This document shows positions 3,126 through 49,761 of a stretch of DNA of 64,000 nucleotides, in pieces. Position numbers and translations under genes: made by a program. Location: NCBI GenBank assembly GCA_963664225.1, contig OY760937.1, positions 1,152,001 through 1,216,000 on the forward strand. Direction: 5' to 3'. Every line of letters begins with the position of its first letter. Position 1 is the first letter of the stretch. The notes beneath the pieces are model-generated. The model saw nothing but the letters and a program-made list of their open reading frames with translations. It had not been told where the DNA came from and did no database searches. Source of the stretch: Verrucomicrobiia bacterium. Its GTDB lineage: Bacteria > Verrucomicrobiota > Verrucomicrobiia > Limisphaerales > UBA1319.

Positions 3126-3246
3126 TTTCGAACAAGATGATGAAGCCGGGCCGGACTATGAATATGGAAAATATCCATCCATTTTGAGGGCATCTTCATG
3201 AGATGGGAATTTGGTGTCATCTGTTAATCAACGCGCAATTTTGCTT

Positions 3247-6200
3247 ATGCATGTTTGTCCTGGGCTTGTTTCTCTAATAGCTTGGCTCGCGGTTATTCTG
3301 GCCATGGCGGGGCATCGTCTGGAAGGGGCCAGCACATCAGGGATATTTGGCGGCGGGCCGTTTTATTCCGGAGGCACGCAAGTCATGAACGACCTGCGGG
3401 CCTCGGGTTTCACCACTGTGATCCTGTGGACCATTCATGTGAATGCCAGCACCGGAGATTTGATACTCAACGACCAGAAGGTGGCATCCAACGGCGCTTA
3501 TGTCGGAAATGCCACATGGCCCGGTCAGCTTGCCACATTGAAGCAGGCACCGACATCGGTCAGGCGGATTGAGGTGGGGATTGGATCGTGGGGTGTCAAC
3601 GATTTTCAATCGATCAAGACACTGATGGCCTCTCAAGGAACGAACACCAACAGCATTCTGTTTAGGAATTTTCGCGCGTTGAAAACGGCAACCGGGGCGG
3701 ATGCGATCAACCTGGACGACGAGATGCTCTACGACATTGCGAGCACGGTGAAGTTTTGCCTGATGTGCGCCTCGATGGGATATAAGGTTTCCCTATGTCC
3801 CTACACGAATCCCAATTTTTGGTCCGGTTGCATGACGCAAATCAATAGCCAACTGCCTGGGACTGTGGATGCGGTGTTTCTCCAGTGTTATGCAGGAGGG
3901 GCGGGGAACGATCCTGCATCGTGGAATAGCACCTTTGGTGGTTTTAAGGTGTTTCCCGGAATGTGGTGCCGTCACGGCAGTGCATGCGCGGAAGGCGACA
4001 ATCCGGCTACCGTTGCCAGCAGTATGGCGGCATGGAAGAGAACGGCTGGTGTGAATGGAGGGTTCCTTTGGCTGTATGACGACATGCGATCCTGCACGAG
4101 TGAAGGAACGACGGCCGATTATGCGCGCGCGATTAACTCGGCTTTCCGCCTGCCAGCGCCAAGCGGGTTGGCTGCAATTCCAGGAGGAGGCACGGTGCTA
4201 TTGACTTGGAATCCATCCGTCGGCGCGAATAGCTACAATGTCAAACGCTCGATATATGCCGCTGGTCCTTATGCGGCCATTGCAACAAATGTATTGACCC
4301 CCTGGTTTCTAAATACGGGACTTGGTCTGGGGACGCGCTGGTTTTATGAGGTGAGTGCGGTGGATGCCAATGGCGAAGGCATCAATTCGGTTTCGGTTGG
4401 CGCGTTGACCTGCAATGGACTGTTGCCTGCGGGCTGGTTGGACCTGGATATTGGCAGCGTTGGCCTGACGGGCACCGCCACGTACTGTGGCAACTCCTTC
4501 ACAATCCAGGCAGGAGGCAGCGATATTGGGAATCTGACGGATGGATTTAATTTTGTGAGTGCCTCAGCGTCCGGCAATAGTGCCATCATCTCACGCGTTG
4601 CATTTTTTGAAGAAACAGATCCCGGCGCCAAGGCCGGCGTGATGTTTCGGAATGATGCCTCACGCGGGAGCATGTTTGCGGATATTGTGGTGACTCCGGG
4701 ACAAGGGATACTGATGCAATCCCGGAATATCGCCAACGGTGAGTGTGTTTCGACCACGGTGGCAGGAATCAACACTCCAGTGTGGCTTCAGATGGTGCGG
4801 GATGGCGACACTTTCACTGGTTATTATGCGAGTGATGGCGCTAATTGGACGCAACTTGGGACGGTCAGTATTGCAATGGCCGGTAACGTGATGTCTGGGT
4901 TGGCTGTCACCGCACACAGTATCACCAATTCGGCCCTGGCAATCTTCGATTATGTGAGCACGGGGGCTCCTGCGATTCTGCAACCGTCAAGCCCCGTCAA
5001 TGTGATGCGTTCTGAAGGGGCCAGTTACACCTTTTCCGCAATCGCGAGCGCCGCACTTCCGGTTTATTATTCCTGGACTCAAGACGGAGCGGCTTTGCCC
5101 AATGCCAACCAGGCCTCTCTCACCCTGGTGAATTTGGCGCCGACCAACTCTGGAAATTATTCGATTGTGGTGAGCAATGCTTTTGGGTGCATCACCAACA
5201 GTATTGCAATGCTCACCGTGGTTGCCACAAGCAACAGCCTTTACCCTCGCACGATAGTGGCCGATCACCCGCTAGCTTACTGGCGTTTGAACGAAGTGGG
5301 AGGCAGGGTGGCTTACGACTACGTTGGCGGCAATGACGGCTCGTATTCAAATGTTTGGTGCGGGCAACCTGGTTATACGCCGTCGGACAAATCGGCGAGG
5401 TTCGGATATTTGTCGCGTTCGAACAGTTATGTCACCATCTCGTCGGTGAACTTCGCCACCCCCGCAAATGCGGCGTTTTCGGTGGAGGCATGGGCGAATG
5501 GAATCGCACAGACCAACGACAGCGGCATCCTTGCGAAAGGCACAGGCGCGGGCGGCGAGCAGTTCAACCTTGACTGTGGCAGCGGCAACCACGCCTTTCG
5601 TTTCTTCGTTCGCGATGCCGGAGGTGGCGTGCATCTGGCCAACACGAGTGTTGTGCCAAACGGCAAATGGCATCACCTCGTTGGCGTTTGTGACGAGGTA
5701 CACGGCAGGATCATTATTTATGTGGATGGGATTAGCGCGGGGCAGGGAACGATCACAGCCGGCAGCGGCTTGTTGGCGACTAGCAATCCGATGACGATTG
5801 GGGCGAGGCAATCCGGGGCGAACACCCCGTTCGATTTGCAGTTTAACGGCTACGTCGCCGATGTCGCGGTTTACAACTTTGCGCTCAACGCGGCCCAGGT
5901 GCAGGCGCATTACAGTGTGACTACAAATCGTCCGCCAGTTTTTACCGCAAATCCATTCACCGCGATGGACGCAATCGCCGGTCAGCCTTACAATGGCGGC
6001 ATTGCCAATTTCGCCAGCGATCCCAACGGGGGATTGCTGACATTTTCCAAAACCAGCGGCGCCTCATGGCTGAATATTTCTGCGGATGGAACCTTGTCCG
6101 GCACACCGCTTTCGGTTGATGTCGGCTCCAATGTATTCGGGGTGAACGTAAAGGATCCCACCGGGTTGTCAGCGAGCGCGGTGATGAATCTGAATGTGGC

Positions 6201-6408
6201 AGGCGCTCCGCCAATTACAGTGTCCGTGTCTACGCAGGGGACAAACCTGTTGTTGACCTGGACAGGTGGAATAGCGCCATACGGGGTGGAAATGGCGACC
6301 AACCTGACCAGTCCAACCTGGTGGCACATTGCGACACCGTTTAATGGGCACAGCATCATGCTCGTTTACAGCAATTCGGCTGCGTTTTATCGAGTTGGTG
6401 GACTGTGA
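3247..6408 (+). CDS. Secreted multidomain GH18-like glycoside hydrolase (FN3, beta-sandwich, Ig-like, LamG, putative Ig)
   Basis: Signal-like N-terminus; DAINLDDE resembles the GH18 DxxDxDxE motif; FN3 (PAPSGLAA...LTW...YNVKRS); Ig (YYSW...SGNYSIVVSN); LamG (AYWRLNE...WHHLVGV). ATG at 3247 chosen; the ORF track uses 3211. Confidence 0.8.
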   Translation: MHVCPGLVSLIAWLAVILAMAGHRLEGASTSGIFGGGPFYSGGTQVMNDLRASGFTTVILWTIHVNASTGDLILNDQKVASNGAYVGNATWPGQLATLKQAPTSVRRIEVGIGSWGVNDFQSIKTLMASQGTNTNSILFRNFRALKTATGADAINLDDEMLYDIASTVKFCLMCASMGYKVSLCPYTNPNFWSGCMTQINSQLPGTVDAVFLQCYAGGAGNDPASWNSTFGGFKVFPGMWCRHGSACAEGDNPATVASSMAAWKRTAGVNGGFLWLYDDMRSCTSEGTTADYARAINSAFRLPAPSGLAAIPGGGTVLLTWNPSVGANSYNVKRSIYAAGPYAAIATNVLTPWFLNTGLGLGTRWFYEVSAVDANGEGINSVSVGALTCNGLLPAGWLDLDIGSVGLTGTATYCGNSFTIQAGGSDIGNLTDGFNFVSASASGNSAIISRVAFFEETDPGAKAGVMFRNDASRGSMFADIVVTPGQGILMQSRNIANGECVSTTVAGINTPVWLQMVRDGDTFTGYYASDGANWTQLGTVSIAMAGNVMSGLAVTAHSITNSALAIFDYVSTGAPAILQPSSPVNVMRSEGASYTFSAIASAALPVYYSWTQDGAALPNANQASLTLVNLAPTNSGNYSIVVSNAFGCITNSIAMLTVVATSNSLYPRTIVADHPLAYWRLNEVGGRVAYDYVGGNDGSYSNVWCGQPGYTPSDKSARFGYLSRSNSYVTISSVNFATPANAAFSVEAWANGIAQTNDSGILAKGTGAGGEQFNLDCGSGNHAFRFFVRDAGGGVHLANTSVVPNGKWHHLVGVCDEVHGRIIIYVDGISAGQGTITAGSGLLATSNPMTIGARQSGANTPFDLQFNGYVADVAVYNFALNAAQVQAHYSVTTNRPPVFTANPFTAMDAIAGQPYNGGIANFASDPNGGLLTFSKTSGASWLNISADGTLSGTPLSVDVGSNVFGVNVKDPTGLSASAVMNLNVAGAPPITVSVSTQGTNLLLTWTGGIAPYGVEMATNLTSPTWWHIATPFNGHSIMLVYSNSAAFYRVGGL

Positions 6409-10248: not shown

Positions 10249-10347
10249 TTTCCGGCTGCAAATAAGCCGTCCTTTCTCCGAAAGTCCGTTGTTTTCAGCT
10301 CCTGAAGGCTCGGAAGGCACTGAAAATTCCAAAAATTCATTTTTAAA

Positions 10348-10376
10348 TGAACCTTTTTCCGTTTCCGGCATTCAAG
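10348..10376 (+). promoter_or_regulatory. Putative ECF-type promoter TGAACCT-N17-TCAAG
   Basis: GAAC-type -35 and TCAA-type -10, ending 8 nt before the ATG of the ECF sigma gene. ECF genes are commonly autoregulated. Confidence 0.45.
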
Positions 10377-10384
10377 TAATTGGA

Positions 10385-10939
10385 ATGTTTGAGATTGCGG
10401 AACCAAATTTGCTGCCAGTGGCGCAAGCCAAAGCCGGGGACGACGGGGCTTGGGACATGCTGCTCCGGCATTTTCGGATGCCGCTCTACATCTATATTTT
10501 CCAGTGGGTCCGCAACGAACAGACGAGCTTCGACCTGGTGCAGGAGACGATGCTCAGCGCCATTCGTCACATTGATGGGATCCAGGACGAAGGCAAGTTT
10601 GGTCCCTGGCTCTTCGGAATAGCGCATCAGAAATGCATTCAGTACTGGCGCAAACAAAATCGTGAGGATGACGCCCTGCAAGAATTCGCCGAAGCGCCAT
10701 CGGATTATGAGGAGGACCCGCGCCAAACCCTCATCCGTCGCGAAAAAGAGGCGCAATTCCTGAGGCTGCTTGAGGATTTACCGTTGTCGCAACGATCGGT
10801 CCTGGTGCTTTACTACATTGAAGAGTTTTCCCTGGAAGAAATCGCCTCGATCACGGGCACCGCACTCGGAACGATTAAGTCACGCCTTTATTACGCCAGA
10901 AAAGCGTTCAGAGATTTGTGGGAAAAGGAGAGTAAATGA
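10385..10939 (+). CDS. ECF sigma-70 factor
   Basis: Region 2 (DLVQET...WLFGIA) and region 4 (SLEEIA...GTIKSRLYYAR). Confidence 0.92.
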   Translation: MFEIAEPNLLPVAQAKAGDDGAWDMLLRHFRMPLYIYIFQWVRNEQTSFDLVQETMLSAIRHIDGIQDEGKFGPWLFGIAHQKCIQYWRKQNREDDALQEFAEAPSDYEEDPRQTLIRREKEAQFLRLLEDLPLSQRSVLVLYYIEEFSLEEIASITGTALGTIKSRLYYARKAFRDLWEKESK

Positions 10940-11376
10940 AAACACCACGGCAGATTTTATATGAGCACCATGCTCCCGCTGACGCCGAGTTAGAACGGAT
11001 CCAGCAACAGGCGCTGGCCTTGGGGTTGCGAAAGAAAAATGAGGCCTTCATTGTTTCCAGTAAACGGAGCGTGTTTAGGCTGCTTTTCAATCCTGCCGTA
11101 TGGGCAGCGGTCTTTCATCCGGCGCGCCAAATCTGGACGGGATTCGCCATTGCATGGGTGGTGATCGTGGTGGTGAATCTCTCGATTGAGACTCTGACCG
11201 TCAGTGGTGTGAAAACGAATCCGGCCCCTGCGAGCGCCATCTTGGCAAACTACAAAGAGCATCAGCGGATTTTGGCTGAGCTGACTGGGCCAACGATTAG
11301 ACCAATAGCTGAGCGCTCCAGGTCATCAGTTCCGAAACCACAGAGCAGACGGAAAACGATTATATCGATTGCTTAA
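10936..11376 (+). CDS. Single-TM putative anti-sigma factor
   Basis: ATGA overlap with the sigma gene; hydrophobic segment WTGFAIAWVVIVVVNL. Confidence 0.65.
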   Translation: MKTPRQILYEHHAPADAELERIQQQALALGLRKKNEAFIVSSKRSVFRLLFNPAVWAAVFHPARQIWTGFAIAWVVIVVVNLSIETLTVSGVKTNPAPASAILANYKEHQRILAELTGPTIRPIAERSRSSVPKPQSRRKTIISIA

Positions 11377-13054
11377 TAAAATGAAAACCGATTCATCAGA
11401 AGCCACACAACCGTCGATCGCCCGCCTTTCCCGAAGATTACGCCGTGTTTTAATCGCACTGGTTGGGCTAATCACTTTGGTCGCGGTGTTTTACACAGTG
11501 GAAGACTGGAGAGGTAAACGGGCTTGGGAAAGCTACAAACATGAGATGGAAGCGAAGGGGCGGCTCGTTGATTGGAAGGCGTTCATTCCTCCTCCAGTAG
11601 CGGATGAGAGCAACATATTCAAGGCGCCCAAAATGGCCGAGTGGTTTGTCGGGAAAGGCACTTCCGCGCTGAACACCAATCTCGACGTTGCGCAGCACAC
11701 CCCGACGAGTATTGTGGTTGTCGCGGAAATCACCGTTGTTTCGAATATTGTCAGTGGTGCAAATGGCGTCTCCATTTACCGGTTGGAAGATGGAGCAGGT
11801 TTGTCGATTGCGGTGAAACAGGTTCATACGGCGTGTGGACCGAGCGCCAGGAGTTGCACCATCGGGGCGTTTTTTGCGTCTCCCCTTGACCAAATCAAAC
11901 CAACGCGAATGGTCCTCCAGGCGGATCGCGCGGTGGGAGTCGCCGACCTGGAGAAGATATTTGGGCCAAAATCTGGCGACACCACCTGCCGCATTGAAGC
12001 GATCGGAACCGGTTCATTCAGGATGGTCGTTCAAAATGCAATGAATGCGGCTGATTTTCTGGTGGCGACTGAGTCTATTAATGCTGATTTTGATACGATC
12101 CGAGCAGGGCTTAAACGTCCGTTCGTCCGGATGGACGACGATTATCAGCAGCTTTTCGAAATACCCATTCCGCGGTTCATTACGATTCGTTCAACAGTGC
12201 AAATGCTCGCCAAGCGCGCCCAGTGTCACATGCTGGAGGGAGAGTCTGAAAAAGCACTACAGGAAGTGACGCTGATCAACGATATGCGCCGCCTGCTCGA
12301 TGCACGTCCCATGACACTTGTGTCCGCAATGATCAATGTTGCTGTTGCTGGACTTTATGCGGATACCGTCGCCGATGGGTTCAGACTTCATGTCTGGGGC
12401 GAGCCGGAGTTGGTGATCATTCAAAAGCAGCTTGCCAATATCAGCCTCATCCCTCCCGTGGCGGAATCCGTTGAAAGCGAGCGAGTGGGTGTAAGCCACC
12501 TTCTTGAAACTCTCAAGCCGCAGAAATTAAGCGAAGTGTTTGGAGGCCTTCAGTCGAAGGTCCTGATTCTGATGCCTCGAGGCTGGTTGTATCAGAACAT
12601 GGCATTCGGGGGCCGTTGGATGGAAAAGTTTAATGAGACCTTTGATTCAGCCCGCCAATATATTTCGCCTCAAAAAGTCGAGGCACTAAAGCGGGATATT
12701 GGGGCAGAAATGGAGCATAGGTCGCCCTACAAATTTCTGGCTGGAGTAGGAATTCCAAATCTCTCGAAAGCCACGCAAACCTGCGGGAAAAATCAAACGA
12801 TGGCCAACCTGGCATTTCTTGCCTGTGCGTTGGAACGATACTGTCTGGCCAACAGTCGATATCCAGAAACACTGGATAAGCTTGTTCCACAGTTTGCCCA
12901 GAAGATCCCGCTGGACGTCGTCAAGGGCCAGCCTTTGCATTATCGTTGCACCGATGGCAAGCGGTTTTCACTCTACTCTGTTGGCTGGAATGAAGCCGAT
13001 GACGGTGGCAATGCCGAGCTGGACTGGATTTGGCAGTATCCGTCCAGTTTGTGA
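11369..13054 (+). CDS. Membrane-anchored hypothetical protein with C-terminal GspG/pseudopilin-like fold
   Basis: N-terminal TM after RRLRR; C-terminus ALERY...YPETLDKLVP...PLD...LYSVGWNEADDGG. Overlaps the upstream gene. Confidence 0.7.
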   Translation: MLNKMKTDSSEATQPSIARLSRRLRRVLIALVGLITLVAVFYTVEDWRGKRAWESYKHEMEAKGRLVDWKAFIPPPVADESNIFKAPKMAEWFVGKGTSALNTNLDVAQHTPTSIVVVAEITVVSNIVSGANGVSIYRLEDGAGLSIAVKQVHTACGPSARSCTIGAFFASPLDQIKPTRMVLQADRAVGVADLEKIFGPKSGDTTCRIEAIGTGSFRMVVQNAMNAADFLVATESINADFDTIRAGLKRPFVRMDDDYQQLFEIPIPRFITIRSTVQMLAKRAQCHMLEGESEKALQEVTLINDMRRLLDARPMTLVSAMINVAVAGLYADTVADGFRLHVWGEPELVIIQKQLANISLIPPVAESVESERVGVSHLLETLKPQKLSEVFGGLQSKVLILMPRGWLYQNMAFGGRWMEKFNETFDSARQYISPQKVEALKRDIGAEMEHRSPYKFLAGVGIPNLSKATQTCGKNQTMANLAFLACALERYCLANSRYPETLDKLVPQFAQKIPLDVVKGQPLHYRCTDGKRFSLYSVGWNEADDGGNAELDWIWQYPSSL

Positions 13055-13169
13055 TTTCAAAACATCGTTAGCGCGTGGATAATGCATGGGAGTTGCGGCA
13101 CCGGAAAATGGAACCTTGAAAAAGTCCATCAGGGTCATCATCCTGCCTCTCCATAACATATCCATTACG

Positions 13170-14453
13170 ATGTCCTCATTGATCAAGACTCTCGCATCAT
13201 TGTGCGCACTGGCCACTTTGCCTGCGTTGGCAGATAATTTCGGCATCGCGGCATTTTCTGCCAATGGCACCTTGAGTGTTACGAACGCCTTCACCAACGG
13301 GGTGGTGACCATTGAGAAAGCGTCGGTTGTGGAGGGGCCATGGGTGGCTGAAAAGAATGCCTTTTCTTTTGCGACGCAGGCCCAGCTCAAACTGGGTTTT
13401 TCAAACGGCACCGCTTTCTTCAGGGCACTCGCCGTCGATTTGTCCGGGTCCAACGGATTCACAAATCTGTTTCAATCATACGGCTTGCTCACCACGGTTG
13501 CTGGTTCTGGTGAAGTCGATTGTATTACCTGCAATAACTGGTGGTCCGGCTATGAAGGAGCGCTGGCCACCGGGGCGGCGCTATCCTCGCCGCACATCGC
13601 CATGGCTGACCGTGCTGGCAATCTATATATTGCGGACAAACGGGCTCACGCGATCCGCAAAGTCACTCCGGGCGGACGCATTTATACCGTTGCCGGGACC
13701 AGTGCTGCCGGTTACGGAGATACGAATGCCGCCCTGGCGACTTCGGCGCCGCTCAATAATCCCAACGGCCTCTATGTGTTCGGAAATGGCATGTTTTACA
13801 TTCTGGATCGAGACAATGGATTGATCCGCAAGGTCGGGACGAATGGAATAATGATGACCATTGTGAATCATGGATCGGCGATTCAAGGTGGGCGGGGCCT
13901 TTGGGTGAATCCTGATGAATCGCTGCTTTATTACTGTGCTGGATCCACCCTCATGCGTTGGGATTCCACCAATGGCCTGACGGCATTTCTCTCCGGATTC
14001 ACGGATTTGGGCAACATCGACATGGATCCCACAGGACGACTTGTTGTCACCGATGCCGGGCAGAGCCGGGTGTTTCGGATTGAACCGGACGGTAGTAAAA
14101 CCGTGATCGCGGGTAATGGAACCAGCAGCGGAGGCGGTGATGGACAATTGGCCATGGAAACTGGGCTCTACCAGGTCCGGGGGATTTGGTATGTACCCTC
14201 GGACGGTTATTTCCTGGCCACAGACGCCGCTTGTCAGGTCTGGTATGTCGATACTTCCGGCACTATTCACCTGGTTATGAGAGGGACCTCAGGAGCCCAC
14301 GCTGGCGATGGCGCGTGGTTTTATGATAATCCAACCTCGCCGAAAATGAGCAATGGAAAGCAGGTCACCATGGATTATGATGGCAACCTGATCATTACCG
14401 AGAGTGAGTATGGTTACGTGAGAAAGATTCAATTCCTCAGGCACGGGCCGTAG
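13170..14453 (+). CDS. Secreted NHL-repeat (beta-propeller) protein
   Basis: Signal peptide MSSLIKTLASLCALATLPALA; repeated GNLYIAD...IRKV...TVAG units. Confidence 0.82.
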   Translation: MSSLIKTLASLCALATLPALADNFGIAAFSANGTLSVTNAFTNGVVTIEKASVVEGPWVAEKNAFSFATQAQLKLGFSNGTAFFRALAVDLSGSNGFTNLFQSYGLLTTVAGSGEVDCITCNNWWSGYEGALATGAALSSPHIAMADRAGNLYIADKRAHAIRKVTPGGRIYTVAGTSAAGYGDTNAALATSAPLNNPNGLYVFGNGMFYILDRDNGLIRKVGTNGIMMTIVNHGSAIQGGRGLWVNPDESLLYYCAGSTLMRWDSTNGLTAFLSGFTDLGNIDMDPTGRLVVTDAGQSRVFRIEPDGSKTVIAGNGTSSGGGDGQLAMETGLYQVRGIWYVPSDGYFLATDAACQVWYVDTSGTIHLVMRGTSGAHAGDGAWFYDNPTSPKMSNGKQVTMDYDGNLIITESEYGYVRKIQFLRHGP

Positions 14454-20764: not shown

Positions 20765-23170
20765 TTATTCTTTGGGCTTGAAGTTCTTCAAGTTGTCGAT
20801 CAGCGACTTTATCTGGGCGTTGTTTGGATCGAACTTCAGACTCGTTTCCGCAATCAGTAGCGCATCTTTCGCTCGGCCTGAGGTGATCAATAGATTAACG
20901 TAGCGGAAGAGTGTTTCCGGGCTGGTGGGGCAAAGGGCGTAAGCTTGCCGAAAGGCGTAATCAGCTTCTTTCGTCATCCTCTGCTTCTCGTCCGGAGTTC
21001 TGGCGTTGGTGGCGCGCCAGGCGTAAAGGCCGCCAATGGCGCTGCGCAGCTTGGAGAAGGCCTTCTGAGCCCATGTATCCGCGATGAATTGAGGATCGCC
21101 AGTGAATCCACCCAGATCATGCTTGAGGTAAACCTTCTCTGCGAAGGCGGCAATCTCGGCAACCGACGTGTCTTCTTTGAGCCAATCGCCCATCATGGGC
21201 TGGAGATACCGTATCCAATATTCGCGGTCCTTTTGAGCCAGTTCCTGTGAGAGGCTCTCCAGCGGTTTGCGATTGATTTTTAGGATCAGCCCGTTGGGCG
21301 AGAGGTGGGGATACATCCATTCAAGTGGAAAGCTTTCCTCGATGTAAAACTCGCGATCGGGGTTGCGATCGAAAATGGTTTTTGTGAGCAGGCCATTAAT
21401 GTTCATGACGGCGACTTGGCCGCTGACCTGCACTTTGTTGTCTTTCATCCGCACATCTTCGCCTGGCTTGAGTTTGTTCTCATTGAGCCGTCGGGTGGCA
21501 TCGGACGTATATTCCATGAAGGATTTTTGAGAATCTTCACCAGTGAGGGTATGGATGTTCGGGCCATACATCGCCCGCACGTATTCCAAGTAAGTGGCAT
21601 CGGCCAGGGCGTTCTGCGTGATGGTGTAGAATGGTTTTCCATCGGCATGAGATTCGGACATGGCAGTGATCACGCCGCGACCGGGATCGGTGCCGCCGAA
21701 GTAAATGCTGCCGGGCGGTATCGATTTGATGATGTCATTGCCATAGGCCAGAACATATTTTTCCTTCCAGTTGGAAAACTCCTGCCATGCAAGGTCTGTC
21801 TCAAGGATCGGGCTCCAGACCTTATCCAACGAATCATCCGCTTTCGTCCCTTCGTACTGATGGGCCCGTCCACGCATGGCAACCCAAAGATTTGTGGCCT
21901 TGGTCCAATCCCCGGATTTGCCCGCCTCAAAATAGGGCCAAACCTCCGGGGCCACGGGATTTCCTTCAGCCAGCTTCCGCGCCTGGGCTTCCTTGGCTGC
22001 AAAGAAGGAGCGCAAACGGGCATCGAACCACGGCTTCGCATTGGCTTCGGGCGTCGATGCATTGACCTCGGTCTTCTGCGCGGCAACGCAGGCGACCAGT
22101 GCAAGCACGGCGACTGAGCACAAACTTACGAGCAAGGTGTGTGGAGTGCTGCGAGGGCGGGAGGCATCCACGATGGCAGTGATCCGATCCTTCAGGCGCG
22201 AGGACCTGGCCATGGCGATGGCTTCCACCGGAGGCACACAGCGCAAAGTCGTGGCGATTTCCACAAGATGCGTGGCGTAGTCCGAGGCCTTGCAGCCGCC
22301 GTTCAAGACCATGTCATCGCAGGCGCTTTCGCGTTCGATGCGCATCCGCCGCGCAGCCATCCAGACGAGAGGATTGAACCAGTAAGTTGCGCACGCAAGG
22401 CGGGCCACGAGTTGAGTCAGGAAATCCCGGCGTTTCACATGGGAGAGTTCGTGCAGCAGCACGACCTTGCGCCGTTCCTCCGGCCAGTTGTCTGCATTCG
22501 CAGGGAGAAGGATGACTGGGTGTAACCAGCCCCACGTCATAGGCATCACATCTTCATCCGATTGCAGCAGGGTGACAGGCCGTTGAACTGCCAATTCCGC
22601 GCAAAGCTGGCGCAACAACGGATTCCAGTCGGGATTTATCGGAGGCCTCATCTTACGGTGGAACGACCGGAGCCGCAATTGACCCACCACAATCGAAAGG
22701 AGGATGACACTTGCACCGGCCATCCAACCGGCCACTAGCAGAGCGGCCCAGCCTGTGGTAAAACGGGTTGTAAGTTGCGGCCTTGAGCCTCCTTGTGCGG
22801 CGGCGGATTTTGTGGGAGCCGTGACAGATGAAGGCGCAGTCGTTTGAGTTTTGGCAGTCGTGGGCATTCTTGCTGGGACAAACTCGAGGGTGAGGGTGAG
22901 TTCATTATTGGCGTTCGCGCGCGTCCCTACTGTCCATAGCGGCCTTTGCCAGGAGGGCAGCACTTGTGAAAGGACTGGCAAACAGAGTAATCCCGCCAGC
23001 GCCAGGAACCATACCAGGTGACGCGCGGATGAAGCACTCCGACGCAAGCAAAGGCAGGCGCCGCATGCGACAATAAGAATGACGAGGCTTTTCAGTATGG
23101 CATCCAGAAACATCGCAGCGAACTGGGAGTGCTGGAGCGAGTATAATGTGGCAACGGTCCACGGGGTCAT
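20765..23170 (-). CDS. BlaR1/MecR1-like M56 metallopeptidase with a DUF2723-derived C-terminal extracytoplasmic domain
   Basis: TM helices, HELSHVKRRD (HExxH), WFNPLVW and ERESACDD; C-terminal ~320 aa align by eye with the 45690-49538 protein. Confidence 0.9.
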   Translation of the reverse strand: MTPWTVATLYSLQHSQFAAMFLDAILKSLVILIVACGACLCLRRSASSARHLVWFLALAGLLCLPVLSQVLPSWQRPLWTVGTRANANNELTLTLEFVPARMPTTAKTQTTAPSSVTAPTKSAAAQGGSRPQLTTRFTTGWAALLVAGWMAGASVILLSIVVGQLRLRSFHRKMRPPINPDWNPLLRQLCAELAVQRPVTLLQSDEDVMPMTWGWLHPVILLPANADNWPEERRKVVLLHELSHVKRRDFLTQLVARLACATYWFNPLVWMAARRMRIERESACDDMVLNGGCKASDYATHLVEIATTLRCVPPVEAIAMARSSRLKDRITAIVDASRPRSTPHTLLVSLCSVAVLALVACVAAQKTEVNASTPEANAKPWFDARLRSFFAAKEAQARKLAEGNPVAPEVWPYFEAGKSGDWTKATNLWVAMRGRAHQYEGTKADDSLDKVWSPILETDLAWQEFSNWKEKYVLAYGNDIIKSIPPGSIYFGGTDPGRGVITAMSESHADGKPFYTITQNALADATYLEYVRAMYGPNIHTLTGEDSQKSFMEYTSDATRRLNENKLKPGEDVRMKDNKVQVSGQVAVMNINGLLTKTIFDRNPDREFYIEESFPLEWMYPHLSPNGLILKINRKPLESLSQELAQKDREYWIRYLQPMMGDWLKEDTSVAEIAAFAEKVYLKHDLGGFTGDPQFIADTWAQKAFSKLRSAIGGLYAWRATNARTPDEKQRMTKEADYAFRQAYALCPTSPETLFRYVNLLITSGRAKDALLIAETSLKFDPNNAQIKSLIDNLKNFKPKE

Positions 23171-23171
23171 A

Positions 23172-23555
23172 TTAGCGGTTATCCTTTCTGGCTTTTTCTA
23201 TGAGTTGTTGAAGATTGGTTAAGTCTGATTCTGAAAGTTTCGTATCCGCCGTCTCGAGAAGGGTCGCCATGGTTTGGGCCACTGACCCTTGAAAAAATGT
23301 CGAGACCACGCGTTTCAAGGCCGAGCGACGTGCAGTCTCGGGCGATGTGCGGGAGACATACACGTAGCGGGCCCCGTCTCGGCGATGGCGCACATGGCCT
23401 TTTTCCTCGAGGATGCGGAGCAGGGCACGAACGGCAGAATAACCTGGAGGTTCGGGCAGGTCGGCGAGGACTTCCGCTGCGGTGGCCTGGCCTTTGGAAT
23501 GGAGAACATCCATGATCTGACGTTCGCGGCGGCTGAGTTGTTGATCGTTATTCAT
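23172..23555 (-). CDS. BlaI/MecI/CopY-family transcriptional repressor
   Basis: LSRRERQIMDVL, YSAVRALLRILEEKG and FFQGS; lies 1 nt upstream of the M56 gene. Confidence 0.93.
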   Translation of the reverse strand: MNNDQQLSRRERQIMDVLHSKGQATAAEVLADLPEPPGYSAVRALLRILEEKGHVRHRRDGARYVYVSRTSPETARRSALKRVVSTFFQGSVAQTMATLLETADTKLSESDLTNLQQLIEKARKDNR

Positions 23556-44642: not shown

Positions 44643-44736
44643 TGAAGGCAGGCCAGGCCGATCAAAACCAGACGCCCTCAAAAAAGAAGCCAACGCTTAT
44701 ACAAAATGAATGGGTTCGGTGTTTATTAGGTGAAGC

Positions 44737-45294
44737 ATGAACGACGACGTCTCGCCGCAATTGAACTGGTTGGAACGCTTGTATGAAGAACAAGCGACCA
44801 AGCTGGTTCTGTACGGTCGGGCGCTCGGATTAAGTCATTCTGAGTCGGAAGATGTTCTTCAAGAAGTATTTGTATCGCTAATAAAACGCGATTTGCCGCC
44901 TGAGCAACCGACCTTTTATTGTCTGCGCGCCGTCAGGAATCGTGCGCTGAACTACCGGCGATCATTGTGGCGACGGATTCAGCGTGAACTGGAGTCGGCG
45001 GGCTGGTTTGAGACAAACTCTGATGAATTTGAACAGGAAAAGGCGGCCATGCGGTGTCTGGCGAACCTGCCAATGGAACAACGGGAAACGATCGTTTTAA
45101 AAATCTGGCATGGATACACTTATGAAGACATTGGACGGCTTTTGGAGGTTTCCCCAAACACCATTGCGGGGCGTTATCGTTACGGACTGCAAAAAATGAG
45201 AACCGTCTTGAAAGGATGGAATTATGAACGAATCGAATTTCGAGGAGAATCGACTGAAACAGTGGATTCCACGATCAACATCCCCACAACTTAA
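44737..45294 (+). CDS. ECF sigma-70 factor
   Basis: EDVLQEVF, VRNRALN and LPMEQRETIVLK...SPNTIAGRYRYGLQK. Confidence 0.9.
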   Translation: MNDDVSPQLNWLERLYEEQATKLVLYGRALGLSHSESEDVLQEVFVSLIKRDLPPEQPTFYCLRAVRNRALNYRRSLWRRIQRELESAGWFETNSDEFEQEKAAMRCLANLPMEQRETIVLKIWHGYTYEDIGRLLEVSPNTIAGRYRYGLQKMRTVLKGWNYERIEFRGESTETVDSTINIPTT

Positions 45295-45685
45295 AAACCG
45301 CATTTTTAATACATCGCGCGTCGAGGAGAGTCAGTATGACAGTGCCACGGAGATGCCCAAACAGATTTGGGGCGTTTCGGAGGCCCGCCCGCGCGTGATA
45401 TCCTTATATCGATGGCTGGCACCGGCTTTGGGCATGGCATTTGTATTCATGCTGGCGGTTCGACAGAGCGATTTGGGACCGGAAGGCGTCGTTATAGACC
45501 AGTACAGCCGCAACATGACTGGGATGAAGCATGGGAATGCCGGTTGGGATTATCTGGAGACCTCAGCGGAGCACACAATGCTCAACCATTTGCCACCGAT
45601 GATTTTTGAATCGACAAACGTGAGGGCATCCTCTTTTAGTATAGCCTCTTTTCTGCTGTTAAATACCAACGGACTGAAACGTTAA
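45224..45685 (+). CDS. Single-TM putative anti-sigma factor
   Basis: Overlaps the sigma gene by 71 nt; FEENRLKQWIPR N-terminus; one TM segment. Confidence 0.6.
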   Translation: MNESNFEENRLKQWIPRSTSPQLKNRIFNTSRVEESQYDSATEMPKQIWGVSEARPRVISLYRWLAPALGMAFVFMLAVRQSDLGPEGVVIDQYSRNMTGMKHGNAGWDYLETSAEHTMLNHLPPMIFESTNVRASSFSIASFLLLNTNGLKR

Positions 45686-45689
45686 AGCC

Positions 45690-48600
45690 ATGAGTAATGA
45701 AAAGTTAAAGTCGCCCAAGCCGACAACTTCGGGAACGACACCCGCCGCCGCCACCAACGGCACGGCGTTCGTCAAGCATCCGGCCCCCTTGTACCGATCG
45801 ATCGATTGGCTGACCTTTGCGCTAACCACGCTTCTGACGTTTCTAGCCTATTATTACACGCTGGCGCCGGATTTGACTTTGGAGGACTCGGGTGAACTGG
45901 CCGTGGGATCGTTTTATGCGGGCGTGCCGCATCCCCCGGGCTACCCTGTTTGGACCATTTTTACGTGGTTGTTCACGGTGTTGGTGCCCATTTCGAACAT
46001 TGCGTGGCGCGTGGCGTTGGCATCTGCGGTGGCAGCCTCGGTGGCCTGCGGTTTGCTGGCCTTGATGGTGTCCCGCGGCAGCAGCATGATGATTGAAGGA
46101 ATCTCCGACTTTAAGAACATCGAGAAAAAGTGGGAGAACGGGTTGTGCGTGGTGGCCGGTTTTGTTGCGGGCTGCCTTCTGGCGTTCAACGGCTTTTATT
46201 GGAGTCAGGCGGTCATTGTCGAGGTGTATTGCTTTGGGGTGCTATCGCTGATGGGGGTGCTGTGCTGTTTGCTGCGCTGGGTTTATGCGCCGCACCAGTA
46301 TCGCTATCTTTACATCGCGGCGTTGCTCTTCGGCATTTGTTTTACCAATCACCAGACGCTGCTCGTGGCGGCGATGGGCATTGAGGTGGCTGTTTTGGCG
46401 GTGAACCCCAAACTCGGGCGCGACCTGTTCCTTTTTAACAGCATTGTTTATTGCCTGGGTCTCTATGGAAAATACTCAGGCTCCATCGGAGCGTTCGATG
46501 CAAACCTGCCGTTGTTCGCCATTTACAATGCCATTGGGGTGTGGTCAGTGGCAACGGCACTGTGGTATTCGCTGAAGACAGACTGGACTGCGAAGCTTAA
46601 AATCGTGGGAGTTTTGCTGGGGGCTAATGTGCTGGCCTGGATTCTTTACATGATGTCCCATTCCCAGGGGAATCTCTCCGAGGCTTCACACACGATGTTG
46701 CTTTTGCTCATCAATGCCCTTGGTTTTGCATTGCTCTACGCTTTCTATGCCCTGTCTGGAAAGGCGGAGCGGTTGTTTACCGAGTGGAAACCGATGTTGA
46801 TTCTGGCCGGGGCGTGGGCGATTGGCGCGGGTTTCTATTTTTACATGCCGCTGACCTCGATGACCAATCCGCCAATGAACTGGGGCTATCCGCGCACGTT
46901 TGATGGTTTCCTGCATGCGCTGTCCCGGGGGCAATACGAGCGCACTAATCCGACCAACGACATATTCAAGTTTGTGGATCAAGTCCGCATGTTTTTTGAA
47001 GGTGCCACAGAAGAATTCAGCTTTGTGTACCTGCTCTTCGCCATTGTTCCTTTTCTGTTCTACAAAAAGTTACAGAAGCGCGAACGGTCTTGGATGATCG
47101 GGTTGGCGGCGATATTCCTGTTCCTGGGCTTTCTGCTGCTGATCCTGCTCAATCCTGGTACCGACAAACAGAGCCGCGATCTTAACAAGGTGTTTTTCAC
47201 CGCCTCGTATGCGATCATCGCCATTGGGGTGGGGTATGGGTTGACCTTTGTGGGTTGCTTGCTGGCGACCCAGTATGAGAAGTATCGGGAATGGGCGCTA
47301 TATGCAGCAGCGGGGGCGGGTGGCATGGCAGTCTATTCGCTGGCCAAAACGATGCAGGAGGTGGTTAATCCGTTGCTGGTCTATACGGCGATCTTCGGAG
47401 TCGCGCTGTCTGTCATGGCCGTTATCGCCCTGTTTTTCTCCCGCAAGAAAGCGCCCATGATCTGTTTACTGGCCATCTATGCGGCCATGCCGATTCATTC
47501 CATCACCGCGCACTGGTCTGACAATGAGCAGCGGGGGCATTTGTTCGGTTTTTGGTTTGGGCATGACATGTTCACACCACCGGACTTCGGTAAAGCCGGC
47601 CAGTTTTATCCCAAAATGGACAGGGATGCGATTCTGTTTGGCGGAACCGATCCGGGCCGGTTTTGTCCGACCTATATGATCTTCTGCGAGAGTTTTATCC
47701 CGCCGCAAAAAAGGCGCGATCCGGATTTTGACCGTCGTGACGTTTATCTCATCACGCAGAACGCGCTGGCAGACAGCACGTATCTCAATTACATCCGGGC
47801 CCATTACAACCGTAGCACACAGGTGGATTCCCCGTTTTTTCAGGAGATGTTTCGCTCACGGAATGAAAAGGAAGCCAACGTGACGACCAACCTTTTGGCC
47901 CGCATGGTTGGGCCGCTGGATCGGTTCTTCACCAGTTATGGAAAGAAAGTGGAGGATCGCCGACGCAAGGAGGGGGTCTATCCGCCCGTGGAAATTCACA
48001 CCCCCACGGTTGAGGAATCCAAAAAATGCTTTGAGGATTACATCAACGACGCCCAACACAGGTTGATGGCCAATCAATTGGAACCTGGGGAAGATGTGCG
48101 GATCGTCGAGGGCCGCGTACAGGTTTCGGGGCAGGTCTCGGTGATGCAGATCAACGGGTTGCTGACCAAAGTCATCTTTGACAACAATCCGACGAATGAA
48201 TTTTATGTGGAGGAAAGCTTCCCGCTCAAGTGGATGTATCCACACCTGAGTCCGTTCGGGATCATTATGAAACTCAATCGGCAGCAGGTGCCGGAATTCA
48301 CCGAGGCGATGGTGAAGAAAGACCATGACTTTTGGAGTCTTTATACTGAACGTCTTTGTGGGAATTGGATCACCTACGACACACCGGTGAAGGAGATTTG
48401 CGATTTTGCCGATCGGGTCTATCGACACATGGATTACCGGGGATACAAGGGGGATCGAAAGTTCGTGCGTGATAACGACGCGCAAAAAGCTTTTTCGAAA
48501 CTGCGCAGCGCCCAGGCGGGACTCTATGCCTGGCGCATCAATGCGGTTAAACCTGGTTCCCCGGAGCAGGCGCGAATGCTCAAGGAGGCGGATTTCGCAT

Positions 48601-49538
48601 TCAAACAATCCTTTGCCTTTTGCCCCTACAGCCCTGAAGCGGTGTTCCGCTATATCAACCTTTTGGCAACCACTCAGCGGATCGAGGATGCCTTGCTGAT
48701 TGCGGAAACCTGCCAGAAGTTTGATCCCGAGAATAAGGGCGTAAACGATCTGGTAAACCAATTGACGAATATCAAACAGAGTGGTGGGGCTGCCGCCGCC
48801 GCCGCCGCCGCCGCTGCGGCTGCCAATCCTCTGGCGCAATTGGAACAGCAATATGAGACCAATCCGGGGAATTCGCAGGTGGCCCTGACCCTCGCCAACG
48901 CTTATCTCCAGCGGCAGCAGACCAACCGGGCAAACGCCTTATTCGATCAGGCCATCAATCTGATGCTGCCCAAGTTTCGGACCAACCCGGCCGATGCCAA
49001 TACCGCGTTTCTTCTGGCCCAGGCGTATCAGAGCCGTCAGATGAAAGCCGAGGCAGTCTCCGTTCTCGACAAATTGATCGCCCAGCTTGAGCCATTGTGC
49101 GCGACCAACAGCACGAACGACTCGCTGGCGTTTAATCTGGTGCAGGCTTACGTCTTCCGCCAGAAGACGCCTCCCGCCATCGCCCTGCTGGACCGCATGA
49201 TCGCACCGGAGAAGGTGAGCACCAGCACATTGATGGGAGCGGCGCAGTTTTACGCGCAGTTGGGAAGCGTGCCCAAGCTTGAGTTGACCCTTCAGAAACT
49301 GGTTAAGATGGTGCCAGATAATGCGGAAGCCTGGTATGACCTGGCGGCCCTGCAGGCCGTTCAGAACAAAAATACCGAAGCGATTCAGTCCCTGGCCCAT
49401 TCCATTGATCTCAGCAACAAGCGTGCGGAAAAACAGCCGGGATCGAAAGATTTGAGTCAATTGGCCGCCTCGGATCCGCGATTGCAGAATTTGCGGCAAA
49501 TGCCTGAGTACAAAAAAATCGTTAAATCTCCGAAATAA
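45690..49538 (+). CDS. DUF2723/TMEM260-like membrane glycosyltransferase with C-terminal TPRs
   Basis: EDSGEL...GVPHPPGYP matches the TMEM260 signature, followed by many TMs, a soluble domain and TPR-like repeats (PDNAEAWYDLAAL). Confidence 0.88.
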   Translation: MSNEKLKSPKPTTSGTTPAAATNGTAFVKHPAPLYRSIDWLTFALTTLLTFLAYYYTLAPDLTLEDSGELAVGSFYAGVPHPPGYPVWTIFTWLFTVLVPISNIAWRVALASAVAASVACGLLALMVSRGSSMMIEGISDFKNIEKKWENGLCVVAGFVAGCLLAFNGFYWSQAVIVEVYCFGVLSLMGVLCCLLRWVYAPHQYRYLYIAALLFGICFTNHQTLLVAAMGIEVAVLAVNPKLGRDLFLFNSIVYCLGLYGKYSGSIGAFDANLPLFAIYNAIGVWSVATALWYSLKTDWTAKLKIVGVLLGANVLAWILYMMSHSQGNLSEASHTMLLLLINALGFALLYAFYALSGKAERLFTEWKPMLILAGAWAIGAGFYFYMPLTSMTNPPMNWGYPRTFDGFLHALSRGQYERTNPTNDIFKFVDQVRMFFEGATEEFSFVYLLFAIVPFLFYKKLQKRERSWMIGLAAIFLFLGFLLLILLNPGTDKQSRDLNKVFFTASYAIIAIGVGYGLTFVGCLLATQYEKYREWALYAAAGAGGMAVYSLAKTMQEVVNPLLVYTAIFGVALSVMAVIALFFSRKKAPMICLLAIYAAMPIHSITAHWSDNEQRGHLFGFWFGHDMFTPPDFGKAGQFYPKMDRDAILFGGTDPGRFCPTYMIFCESFIPPQKRRDPDFDRRDVYLITQNALADSTYLNYIRAHYNRSTQVDSPFFQEMFRSRNEKEANVTTNLLARMVGPLDRFFTSYGKKVEDRRRKEGVYPPVEIHTPTVEESKKCFEDYINDAQHRLMANQLEPGEDVRIVEGRVQVSGQVSVMQINGLLTKVIFDNNPTNEFYVEESFPLKWMYPHLSPFGIIMKLNRQQVPEFTEAMVKKDHDFWSLYTERLCGNWITYDTPVKEICDFADRVYRHMDYRGYKGDRKFVRDNDAQKAFSKLRSAQAGLYAWRINAVKPGSPEQARMLKEADFAFKQSFAFCPYSPEAVFRYINLLATTQRIEDALLIAETCQKFDPENKGVNDLVNQLTNIKQSGGAAAAAAAAAAAANPLAQLEQQYETNPGNSQVALTLANAYLQRQQTNRANALFDQAINLMLPKFRTNPADANTAFLLAQAYQSRQMKAEAVSVLDKLIAQLEPLCATNSTNDSLAFNLVQAYVFRQKTPPAIALLDRMIAPEKVSTSTLMGAAQFYAQLGSVPKLELTLQKLVKMVPDNAEAWYDLAALQAVQNKNTEAIQSLAHSIDLSNKRAEKQPGSKDLSQLAASDPRLQNLRQMPEYKKIVKSPK
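48789..48824 (+). repeat. GCN x12 poly-alanine tract containing (GCC)7
   Basis: GCT(GCC)7GCTGCGGCTGCC read directly from the sequence. Confidence 0.9.
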
Positions 49539-49560: not shown

Positions 49561-49607
49561 CCCCTCGGGGATTTAACTTTCTATTTTGAATCCCGGAGGG
49601 GCTTTTT
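49561..49607 (+). terminator. Possible intrinsic terminator
   Basis: CCCCTCGGGGATT...AATCCCGGAGGGG followed by CTTTTT; the loop is long. Confidence 0.45.
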
Positions 49608-49761
49608 GCGTCAATCCGTTGGTGGTATTGAAACCGTTCACCGGCATTGAGCCAGTTTCTTATAATTAACGATGAAATGCACACGAAGCGGTGGAATTCA
49701 TCGCAACTGGACAATTCCAGCGGTGTTATGTATGGCAGTAACGTGAATTGAAGGATTAAGC

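Follow-up and report, generated by a model that had tools for sequence, protein, structure and literature searches.

A TMEM260-like glycosyltransferase gene under putative control of an adjacent extracytoplasmic function sigma factor in a Verrucomicrobiia bacterium

Bacterial enzymes of the DUF2723 family (PF11028), which are related to human TMEM260, lack a known function, and a dedicated switch with a regulon of nearly a single gene would provide an experimental handle on them. A candidate for such a switch is found in a 64,000-nucleotide stretch from a Verrucomicrobiia bacterium of the order Limisphaerales (assembly GCA_963664225.1, contig OY760937.1, positions 1,152,001 to 1,216,000; hereafter 'the window', whose own numbering is used for all features described below unless a contig is named). 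Here, the gene of a DUF2723-type glycosyltransferase (GT) follows directly on those of a sigma factor of the extracytoplasmic function (ECF) type and of a presumed anti-sigma factor. Limisphaerales- and Pedosphaera-type Verrucomicrobiota occur abundantly in soil and freshwater and have been little studied. An initial annotation, made from the letters of the window and without database searches, suggested that the sigma/anti-sigma pair places a bacterial protein glycosylation enzyme under envelope-stress control. We ask whether the three genes form one regulatory unit, how the switch would work and what the enzyme is likely to modify.

Gene order and promoter of the candidate operon

All three genes lie on the + strand. 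The sigma gene (ORF1, 44737-45294, 185 amino acids) and the anti-sigma gene (ORF2, 45224-45685, 153 amino acids) overlap by 71 nt (45224-45294), and four bases (45686-45689) separate the anti-sigma stop codon from the ATG of the GT gene (ORF3, 45690-49538, 1282 amino acids). These open reading frames (ORFs), the overlap and the gap, as well as the DSGE/HPPGYP motif and the tetratricopeptide repeats (TPRs) that the initial annotation had read in the GT, are all present in the ORF list, the translations and the Pfam matches. A two-box promoter of the ECF type is predicted at 44697-44726 (+); 10 nt separate its second box from the sigma ATG, so that the mRNA leader would be very short. At the other end, the GT stop codon is followed by a predicted intrinsic terminator hairpin with a U-tract (49561-49608, +; folding energy -31 kcal/mol, z -5.8, with 0 of 200 shuffles equally good), and the sigma-70-like promoter predicted for the next gene (49637-49666) lies downstream of this hairpin. 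No + strand terminator was found before the GT. The initial annotation had named an independent promoter inside the anti-sigma gene as an argument against joint control; none is predicted there by a scan that covers the sigma-70-like type only. Taken together, the ECF promoter, the sigma, anti-sigma and GT genes and the terminator would constitute one three-gene, self-activating operon, a reading to which we assign a probability of about 0.6.

Conservation of this gene order was assessed in 40 relatives, that is genomes of the same order (41 with the own genome). The GT is matched in 40 of the 41 genomes, the own included; one relative (G015) has no match, and another (G002) has a match only of the M56 type described below. 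Of 40 GT loci in 38 relatives, for which the upstream sequence was examined over as much as ~3 kb, 23 have a sigma orthologue (48-67% identical) immediately upstream and in the same orientation, 15 have none and the remaining two are too short. At E<=1e-30, exactly one sigma orthologue per genome is present in 24 of the 40 relatives, adjoining the GT in 23 of them, and none was found in the other 16; in G037, sigma and GT lie at the ends of two contigs. A sigma-profile scan of 185,579 species genomes gave 520 relatives, of which the best 80 were kept: a GT follows within 900 nt downstream in 74 of the 79 assessable loci (one locus is too short), a count to be read with the limits that these public loci partly overlap the 40 relatives and that kin are not independent samples. 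Their labels are mostly Verrucomicrobiota, Limisphaerales or Pedosphaera, with a few others. The linkage across relatives that the initial annotation had proposed to look for is thus conserved, and on the evidence of these sequences the association of sigma and GT is not due to chance.

The 15 GT loci without sigma are preceded by unrelated genes, FeoB in four and, for example, alanine racemase, ThiC or a type II secretion system ATPase in others. Thirteen of them are the main GT of sigma-less genomes and two are extra paralogues in genomes where the operon sits elsewhere. The feoB gene is also often found just upstream of the operon itself, and in the four genomes in which it abuts the GT directly, the sigma pair looks as if it had been gained or lost between the two in one piece (loci of both kinds: L053, L059, L061, L063 and L039-L042). 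Several public contigs of metagenome-assembled genomes that carry the operon, which is typical of Verrucomicrobiota (e.g. L138, L140, L125, L126 and L170), bear labels such as Bifidobacterium, Methylomirabilota, Haliangiales or Akkermansia muciniphila; these odd labels probably stem from mistakes in binning or naming and not from gene transfer.

All of the 23 sigma loci have the two promoter boxes (8 nt and 9 nt, separated by a spacer of 12-14 nt) upstream of the sigma gene, a conservation that marks the predicted element as a putative autoregulatory ECF promoter. They end 7-39 nt before the annotated sigma start in most loci and overlap the start by 1 nt in one. A position weight matrix (PWM) built on them gives a site of >20 bits within 80 nt upstream of sigma in 76 of the 79 public loci. 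GT loci without sigma have no PWM site >12 bits, except for a GT paralogue of one relative (G013:C71), which has a site of 28.9 bits just upstream of its start. Across the own 5.78-Mb genome, the operon site scores 33.1 bits and the next one 22.1 bits; three shuffled genomes reach 23-26 bits, and when the matrix was used to look for a wider regulon, no site outside the operon exceeded these shuffled scores.

Furthermore, a sequence-only promoter model was scanned over the 41 genomes. It recovers the sigma promoters and returns 12 extra matches at E<=0.1, every one of them in a genome that carries sigma, while the 16 sigma-less genomes have none. Among the extra matches with a recognisable gene downstream is one before the DUF2723 paralogue of G013 (16.8 bits); a weaker match precedes another such paralogue in G031 (14.7 bits, E 0.17; PF11028 E 3e-24). 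Both paralogues (L062, G013:C71, and L106, G031:C19) are ~480 amino acids long, lack the periplasmic domain described below and stand right behind the ECF-type promoter. The G013 paralogue reads DSGI and PQVPGFP, the Glu and His of the motif being replaced, and may therefore be catalytically altered. Weaker matches in relatives precede genes for a beta-lactamase-family protein, a TPR lipoprotein, small membrane proteins, an ABC-2 permease and a PAS/GAF protein, none of which we claim as regulon; the own genome holds one further match (14.3 bits, E 0.28), which no gene start follows. As far as predicted promoters tell, the GT seems to be the sole recognisable output of the sigma factor in its own genome.

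These results bear on the possibility that the adjacency is incidental, with the GT transcribed from a promoter of its own and the sigma pair regulating other genes. Such independence would agree with the 13 relatives in which the GT stands alone. It would, however, leave unexplained why sigma adjoins the GT in 23 of the 24 relatives that bear it and in nearly all public loci (74 of 79), why the only above-noise promoter site of the genome is that of the operon, why the same motif precedes GT paralogues elsewhere, and why a gap of merely 4 nt, with no + strand terminator before it, leads into the GT. We consider an incidental adjacency very improbable. Dedicated control of the TMEM260-like GT by the adjacent ECF sigma/anti-sigma pair, the central proposal of the initial annotation, is well supported as a prediction from gene order, spacing, the ECF promoter, the lack of a predicted internal sigma-70-like promoter and a terminator that appears only after the GT.

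Sigma factor, anti-sigma factor and the proposed switch

The product of ORF1 consists of sigma2 and sigma4 domains only, in 185 amino acids, which is the architecture of an ECF (group IV) sigma factor. Its Pfam scores are 24.3 bits for Sigma70_r2 (with a cut-off of 24), 39 bits for Sigma70_r4_2 and 21.9 bits for Sigma70_ECF, the NCBIfam model TIGR02937 exceeds its cut-off of 42.9 with a score of 52.7, and orthologues are 47-64% identical.

For the 153-residue product of ORF2, neither Pfam nor NCBIfam yields a family at E<=0.1, and its residues 1-60 contain no Cys, unlike the zinc-binding class I ZAS/RskA anti-sigma factors (HxxxCxxC). A reading frame of this type stands at position +1 in 23 of 23 sigma loci. 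In the 22 sequences that were aligned, it encodes 124-170 amino acids with a single transmembrane helix; it overlaps the 3' end of sigma in most loci, an overlapping layout that recurs in the ORF lists across the sigma-carrying loci, and its stop codon lies within ~0-12 nt of the GT start in most. The alignment conserves E8, W14, R17, P19 and F28 in the N-terminal part and the single transmembrane helix, and in the C-terminal tail T131 is invariant and a near-terminal Asn is conserved. The protein can accordingly be divided into a cytoplasmic sigma-binding motif (residues 4-28), a transmembrane helix (~61-79) and a periplasmic part of ~70 residues that includes the C-terminal tail. The upstream start codon, and hence the 71-nt overlap, is supported by the relatives, in which conservation of the N-terminal motif sets in at residues 4-8.

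The nearest clusters in the ESM Atlas are Verrucomicrobiota entries named 'hypothetical protein', of 127-131 amino acids and without a Pfam family. When the 82,242 six-frame ORFs of the own genome are scanned with hidden Markov models (HMMs) of the N-terminal motif and of the tail, each model retrieves only the anti-sigma protein itself (E 2.3e-11 and 3.6e-12, with the next best at 0.053 and 0.059, respectively); this substrate hunt found no wider 'sequon' among those ORFs. The protein would represent an undescribed anti-sigma family, defined together with its cognate promoter.

A structure prediction of sigma in complex with anti-sigma residues 1-60 scored 0.62, and the best of three controls 0.01. 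Of 157 solved complexes, 116 attain this mark, against 2 of 215 mismatched pairs; the counts are approximate here because custom alignments were used. The runs agree in at least 92% of contacts, with a predicted local distance difference test score (pLDDT) of the partner of at least 59, and in the predicted interface residues 4-28 of the anti-sigma factor face residues 9-49 and 89-158 of sigma, which belong to both of its domains. The model supports binding of the anti-sigma N-terminus to sigma, and it likewise supports a role of the 153-residue protein as an anti-sigma factor outside the class I ZAS/RskA families. Short anti-sigma factors of class II, the CnrY type, have a very short cytoplasmic sigma-binding segment before a single transmembrane helix. 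The present protein is alike in its short segment and helix and in a modelled interface on both sigma2 and sigma4, but it has no sequence relationship to them, and W14, R17, P19, F28 and the tail motifs are specific to its own family.

We hypothesize that, in the resting state, the anti-sigma factor clamps sigma2 and sigma4 with its first ~28 residues. By analogy with other anti-sigma factors of the single-pass type, a periplasmic cue, possibly envelope stress as first suggested, would be read via the conserved C-terminal tail and lead to the release of sigma. Once free, sigma would transcribe from its own promoter, and sigma, anti-sigma and GT would rise together in a positive autoregulatory loop. 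In relatives, the same promoter would also drive the GT paralogues and lipoproteins made of the periplasmic domain of the GT.

Operons of comparable design are known. In Bacillus subtilis, sigV-rsiV-oatA-yrhK unites an ECF sigma factor, a single-pass anti-sigma factor and a membrane-bound, envelope-modifying enzyme in one autoregulated operon, with the enzyme as the main output of a narrow regulon; oatA encodes a peptidoglycan O-acetyltransferase, and RsiV is a lysozyme receptor with a sizeable extracellular domain. The locus described here shares this layout, whereas its output is a GT-C enzyme and the periplasmic part of its anti-sigma factor has only ~70 residues. It is an ECF-switch arrangement of a known type with a TMEM260-like GT as a new output.

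An ECF sigma factor, a putative anti-sigma factor and a conserved GT neighbour also occur together in two groups of the ECF classification 2.0 (PMC7826278), namely ECF208 of Spirochaetes, with GTs fused to IDEAL domains, and ECF248, which has at position -1 a GT2 of the soluble type. Neither DUF2723 nor PF11028 occurs in the main text or in the accessible part of the supplement of that classification, in which later groups may be missing; the main text does not mention Verrucomicrobia, and nine of the ten supplementary passages on Verrucomicrobia describe other contexts and not this promoter. A literature search for this Verrucomicrobia ECF-GT operon found nothing among the papers listed, and the use of 'DUF2723' that it met with is that of the human TMEM260 discovery paper, the accessible sections of which merely mention distant bacterial homologues (PMC10214176).

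The glycosyltransferase and its likely acceptor

Residues 66-235 of the GT match positions 1-170 in the 179-position profile of PF11028, the TMEM260-like family (E 3.4e-25; 89.3 bits against a cut-off of 24.2, and 95.1 bits when the genome was scanned), and TPR families are recognised at residues 1042-1250. Residues 53-197 align with human TMEM260 (PDB 9rql) at E 8.8e-10, and this alignment places D66 on D52 and H81 on H67 of the human enzyme. According to the accessible sections of a recent preprint (bioRxiv 10.64898/2026.03.17.711096), D52A and mutation of H67 abolish the activity of TMEM260, and both residues contact the mannose of dolichyl-P-mannose. The corresponding sugar-recognition motif, D66 to P86 (45885-45947, +), is intact in the GT as D66-S-G-E69 and H81-P-P-G-Y-P86. 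Invariant in 24 GT orthologues are D66, G68, E69, H81 and P83-P86, together with W398, R402, G406, F407, H409, R413 and Y416, which outline a candidate donor-loading loop (W398 to Y416; 46881-46937, +). Within this loop, R413 and Y416 pair with the donor-binding R264 and Y267 of TMEM260 only in a HMMER stretch with an i-Evalue of 2.6e+02. We infer that the GT is a polyprenyl-phosphate-sugar-dependent enzyme with an intact donor-binding motif.

An AlphaFold2 model of GT residues 1-1035 (24-row alignment, pLDDT 78.4, predicted template modelling score (pTM) 0.77) matches STT3/PglB at E 5e-5 to 1e-4 and ArnT at 7.5e-4 in Foldseek searches, with Emb, Pmt4 and DPY19 also matched; TMEM260 entries are absent from the matches, which were drawn from a fold library up to 2026-04-08. 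In this model, the membrane core of the GT is a multi-pass GT-C fold.

The periplasmic portion begins with an un-annotated domain, here called CTD (residues 631-1035; 47580-48794, +), which matches no Pfam family. When modelled alone (37-row alignment, pLDDT 84.8, pTM 0.80), it consists of an alpha/beta half followed by TPR-like helices, and a near-invariant GGTDPGR loop, which contains D654, lies early in the domain, after the last transmembrane helix. Structure searches with CTD (Foldseek against the PDB, VIA-align wide) return TPR-type matches to the helical half only, the best with a Z of 10.7, and a profile search of PDB sequences returns TPR proteins only, TMEM260 not among them. The alpha/beta part may be equivalent to the catalytic 'palm' of TMEM260, which holds the base D441. 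Behind CTD follow a poly-Ala linker and a C-terminal TPR array (48795-49535, +); a run of 12 alanines links CTD to this last TPR block (48780-48830, GT residues ~1031-1047).

The GT and human TMEM260 (PDB 9RQL/9RQM/9RQN; PMC10214176; bioRxiv 10.64898/2026.03.17.711096) therefore belong to the same PF11028 family and share the DSGE...HPPGYP motif; the GT also has a WG...GFL.H..R..Y loop, in which R413/Y416 are weakly aligned to R264/Y267. In the accessible parts of these sources, TMEM260 has the same order of parts, that is a GT-C core, a luminal (in the GT, periplasmic) alpha/beta domain and TPR helices. The two enzymes differ in size (1282 against 707 amino acids, and ~400 for CTD against ~150 for the Rossmann-like palm), and the GT has, unlike TMEM260, a second TPR block behind the poly-Ala linker. 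Its donor would be a bacterial polyprenyl-phosphate sugar, whereas that of TMEM260 is dolichyl-P-mannose. Finally, TMEM260 modifies IPT-domain substrates and is not known to have a dedicated transcriptional switch, whereas the GT has a putative ECF switch and no linked IPT substrate. CTD and the TPRs would most likely hold an extended polypeptide acceptor, as their counterparts do in the human enzyme.

The initial annotation had put forward an Ig-rich secreted protein of the window as a candidate type of substrate, in view of the Ig-like IPT domains that TMEM260 modifies. This proposal is not supported: the protein (3211-6408) matches Laminin_G_3, He_PIG, Big_9 and Ig_3 but no TIG/IPT domain in Pfam, lies 38 kb from the operon with no other linkage to it and carries no ECF promoter site. 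The only TIG/IPT matches of the genome, seven in number, all fall in one 2895-residue frame (G000:C1:3375044-3380890) at 2.2 Mb from the operon; this frame is closer in domain type to the substrates of TMEM260 than the Ig-rich protein and is unlinked to the operon. No acceptor candidate with a link to the operon or with its promoter emerges from the PWM scan of the own genome or from the motif HMMs.

Several points weigh against reading the locus as a self-activating operon for a protein-modifying enzyme. Co-transcription, the transcription start site and induction are all predicted from sequence, and an internal GT promoter may exist that is of a type outside the sigma-70-like scan. Five of the 79 public loci keep sigma and anti-sigma without an adjacent GT, other genes standing next to them, and in 13 relatives the GT occurs without the pair, which makes the pair an accessory regulator and not a requirement. 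The score of the sigma/anti-sigma complex may partly reflect likeness, because complexes of other sigma/anti-sigma families have been solved. For the enzyme itself, the alignment of R413/Y416 to TMEM260 is not significant on its own, and the alpha/beta half of CTD gave no clear sequence or fold match to the TMEM260 palm or to any other protein in the searches described above, which does not prove a new fold. Moreover, the Foldseek matches to ArnT and Emb, whose acceptors are lipids or glycans, are about as good as those to the protein-modifying oligosaccharyltransferases and protein O-mannosyltransferases.

This last result is the starting point of an alternative in which the regulation is as described above but the GT modifies a lipid or glycan, of the lipid A/lipopolysaccharide type or of the cell wall, and the operon is an inducible envelope-remodelling or resistance module, similar to the ECF-driven wall-modifying enzymes of other bacteria. 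ArnT (E 7.5e-4, TM on target 0.50) and EmbA/B/C are indeed among the best fold matches, no protein substrate candidate is tied to the operon or its promoter, and a bacterial DUF2723 acceptor known from the literature was not found, the accessible text of the TMEM260 paper mentioning only distant bacterial homologues. Sequence and architecture argue the other way. The closest sequence relative of known function is a protein O-mannosyltransferase; some 650 residues of the GT are periplasmic and comprise an alpha/beta part and two TPR blocks, a layout with which TMEM260, as far as its partly accessible description goes, grips an extended peptide; and the reuse of CTD in BlaR1-type sensors and in lipoproteins, described below, fits a ligand-binding module. 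We regard a lipid or glycan acceptor as unlikely, if worth keeping in view, and consider it more probable that the GT acts on proteins.

Other carriers of the periplasmic domain and a possible sensory role

Exactly two copies of CTD are present in the own genome, one in the GT and the other in an M56/BlaR1-type protein of the window (20765-23170, -; 801 amino acids), which has Peptidase_M56 and TPR matches and shares the region of GT residues 647-1029 with 46% identity (E 2e-101). The initial annotation had taken this protein for a DUF2723 paralogue. We reject this assignment, since PF11028 is missing from the protein. That the two proteins have a domain in common holds, but the domain is CTD (residues 647-1029) and not DUF2723. 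A gene for a BlaI-type repressor (23172-23555, -; Penicillinase_R E 3.5e-27) lies directly upstream of the M56 gene. The two form a pair of the BlaR1/BlaI kind, with CTD in the place of the penicillin-binding sensor of BlaR1, and constitute a regulatory system separate from the operon, with no GT-C domain and no ECF promoter site.

CTD is widespread beyond this genome, with 1375 cluster representatives at E<=1e-3 in a library of 1.84 billion proteins. Pfam was run on 32 representatives chosen out of 150 listed: 3 carry PF11028, 12 carry Peptidase_M56 (two of these also SecDF_P1_head), one a TIR domain and one ankyrin and Kelch repeats, and ten chosen representatives of 442-490 amino acids have nothing beyond a terminal TPR. 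Proteins of this CTD-only kind also appear behind the ECF promoter. Among the extra matches of the promoter model in relatives, three precede CTD-only genes of ~470-490 codons (26.8 bits in G034, 24.8 in G020 and 21.5 in G039), and a weak one is found in G032 (13.0 bits, E 0.5); not every CTD-only gene carries such a site. The G034 protein starts with a lipoprotein-type signal peptide. CTD thus has the appearance of a mobile module that is reused in BlaR1-like sensors and in sigma-controlled lipoproteins, and this reuse fits a ligand-binding function.

Four CTD-only proteins (L115 in G034:C16, L103, L105 and L116) are lipoproteins or signal-anchored, ~470-490 amino acids in length, and combine a ~190-residue N-terminal part of no assigned family with a CTD in which the loop is kept in a form of the GGTD(A/P)GR type; in some genomes they stand behind the ECF promoter.

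The sensory use of CTD in other proteins raises the question of whether the GT is itself part of the sensor. Its CTD or TPRs would then bind or glycosylate the conserved anti-sigma tail with its invariant T131, and the stability of the anti-sigma factor would report the occupancy of the enzyme or the supply of lipid-linked sugar, closing a homeostatic loop. Such a role could explain a tail that is short yet conserved with one invariant Thr, motifs of tail and N-terminus that each match only the anti-sigma factor among the six-frame ORFs of the genome, and the 0-12 nt between anti-sigma stop and GT start in most loci; it would also agree with the BlaR1-like relatives, in which CTD serves as a sensor, and with the preference of TMEM260 for extended peptides that end in Thr/Ser, reported in the accessible sections of the preprint (bioRxiv 10.64898/2026.03.17.711096). 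The five of 79 loci that keep sigma and anti-sigma with no GT beside them do not agree with it, and the tail does not fit the sequon proposed for TMEM260 in those same sections. We therefore consider a sensory role of the GT improbable.

A wider version of the idea, which we put forward as a speculation with a small chance of being right, would make the operon a glycosylation-status sensor: the anti-sigma tail with T131 would be a substrate or pseudo-substrate of CTD, the occupancy of the GT or the supply of lipid-linked sugar would set the stability of the anti-sigma factor and through it the synthesis of the GT, and the CTD copies on BlaR1-type proteases and lipoproteins would belong to a wider network that monitors unmodified periplasmic polypeptides. 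If true, this would be a bacterial counterpart of the quality control coupled to protein O-mannosylation. Our preferred reading remains the simpler one, in which the GT is an output of the sigma/anti-sigma switch.

Two further loci are related to the genes discussed. A second PF11028 gene is present in the own genome (C1:753603-755735, -; E 2.3e-9), within a frame of 952 residues (L002); it has no sigma neighbour in the stretch examined and is not among the top PWM promoter matches. In the window, a second ECF sigma gene (216 amino acids) is followed by genes for a 561-residue protein without a Pfam family and for a 455-residue NHL-repeat protein (together 10289-14453, +), and these genes may form another sigma/anti-sigma unit.

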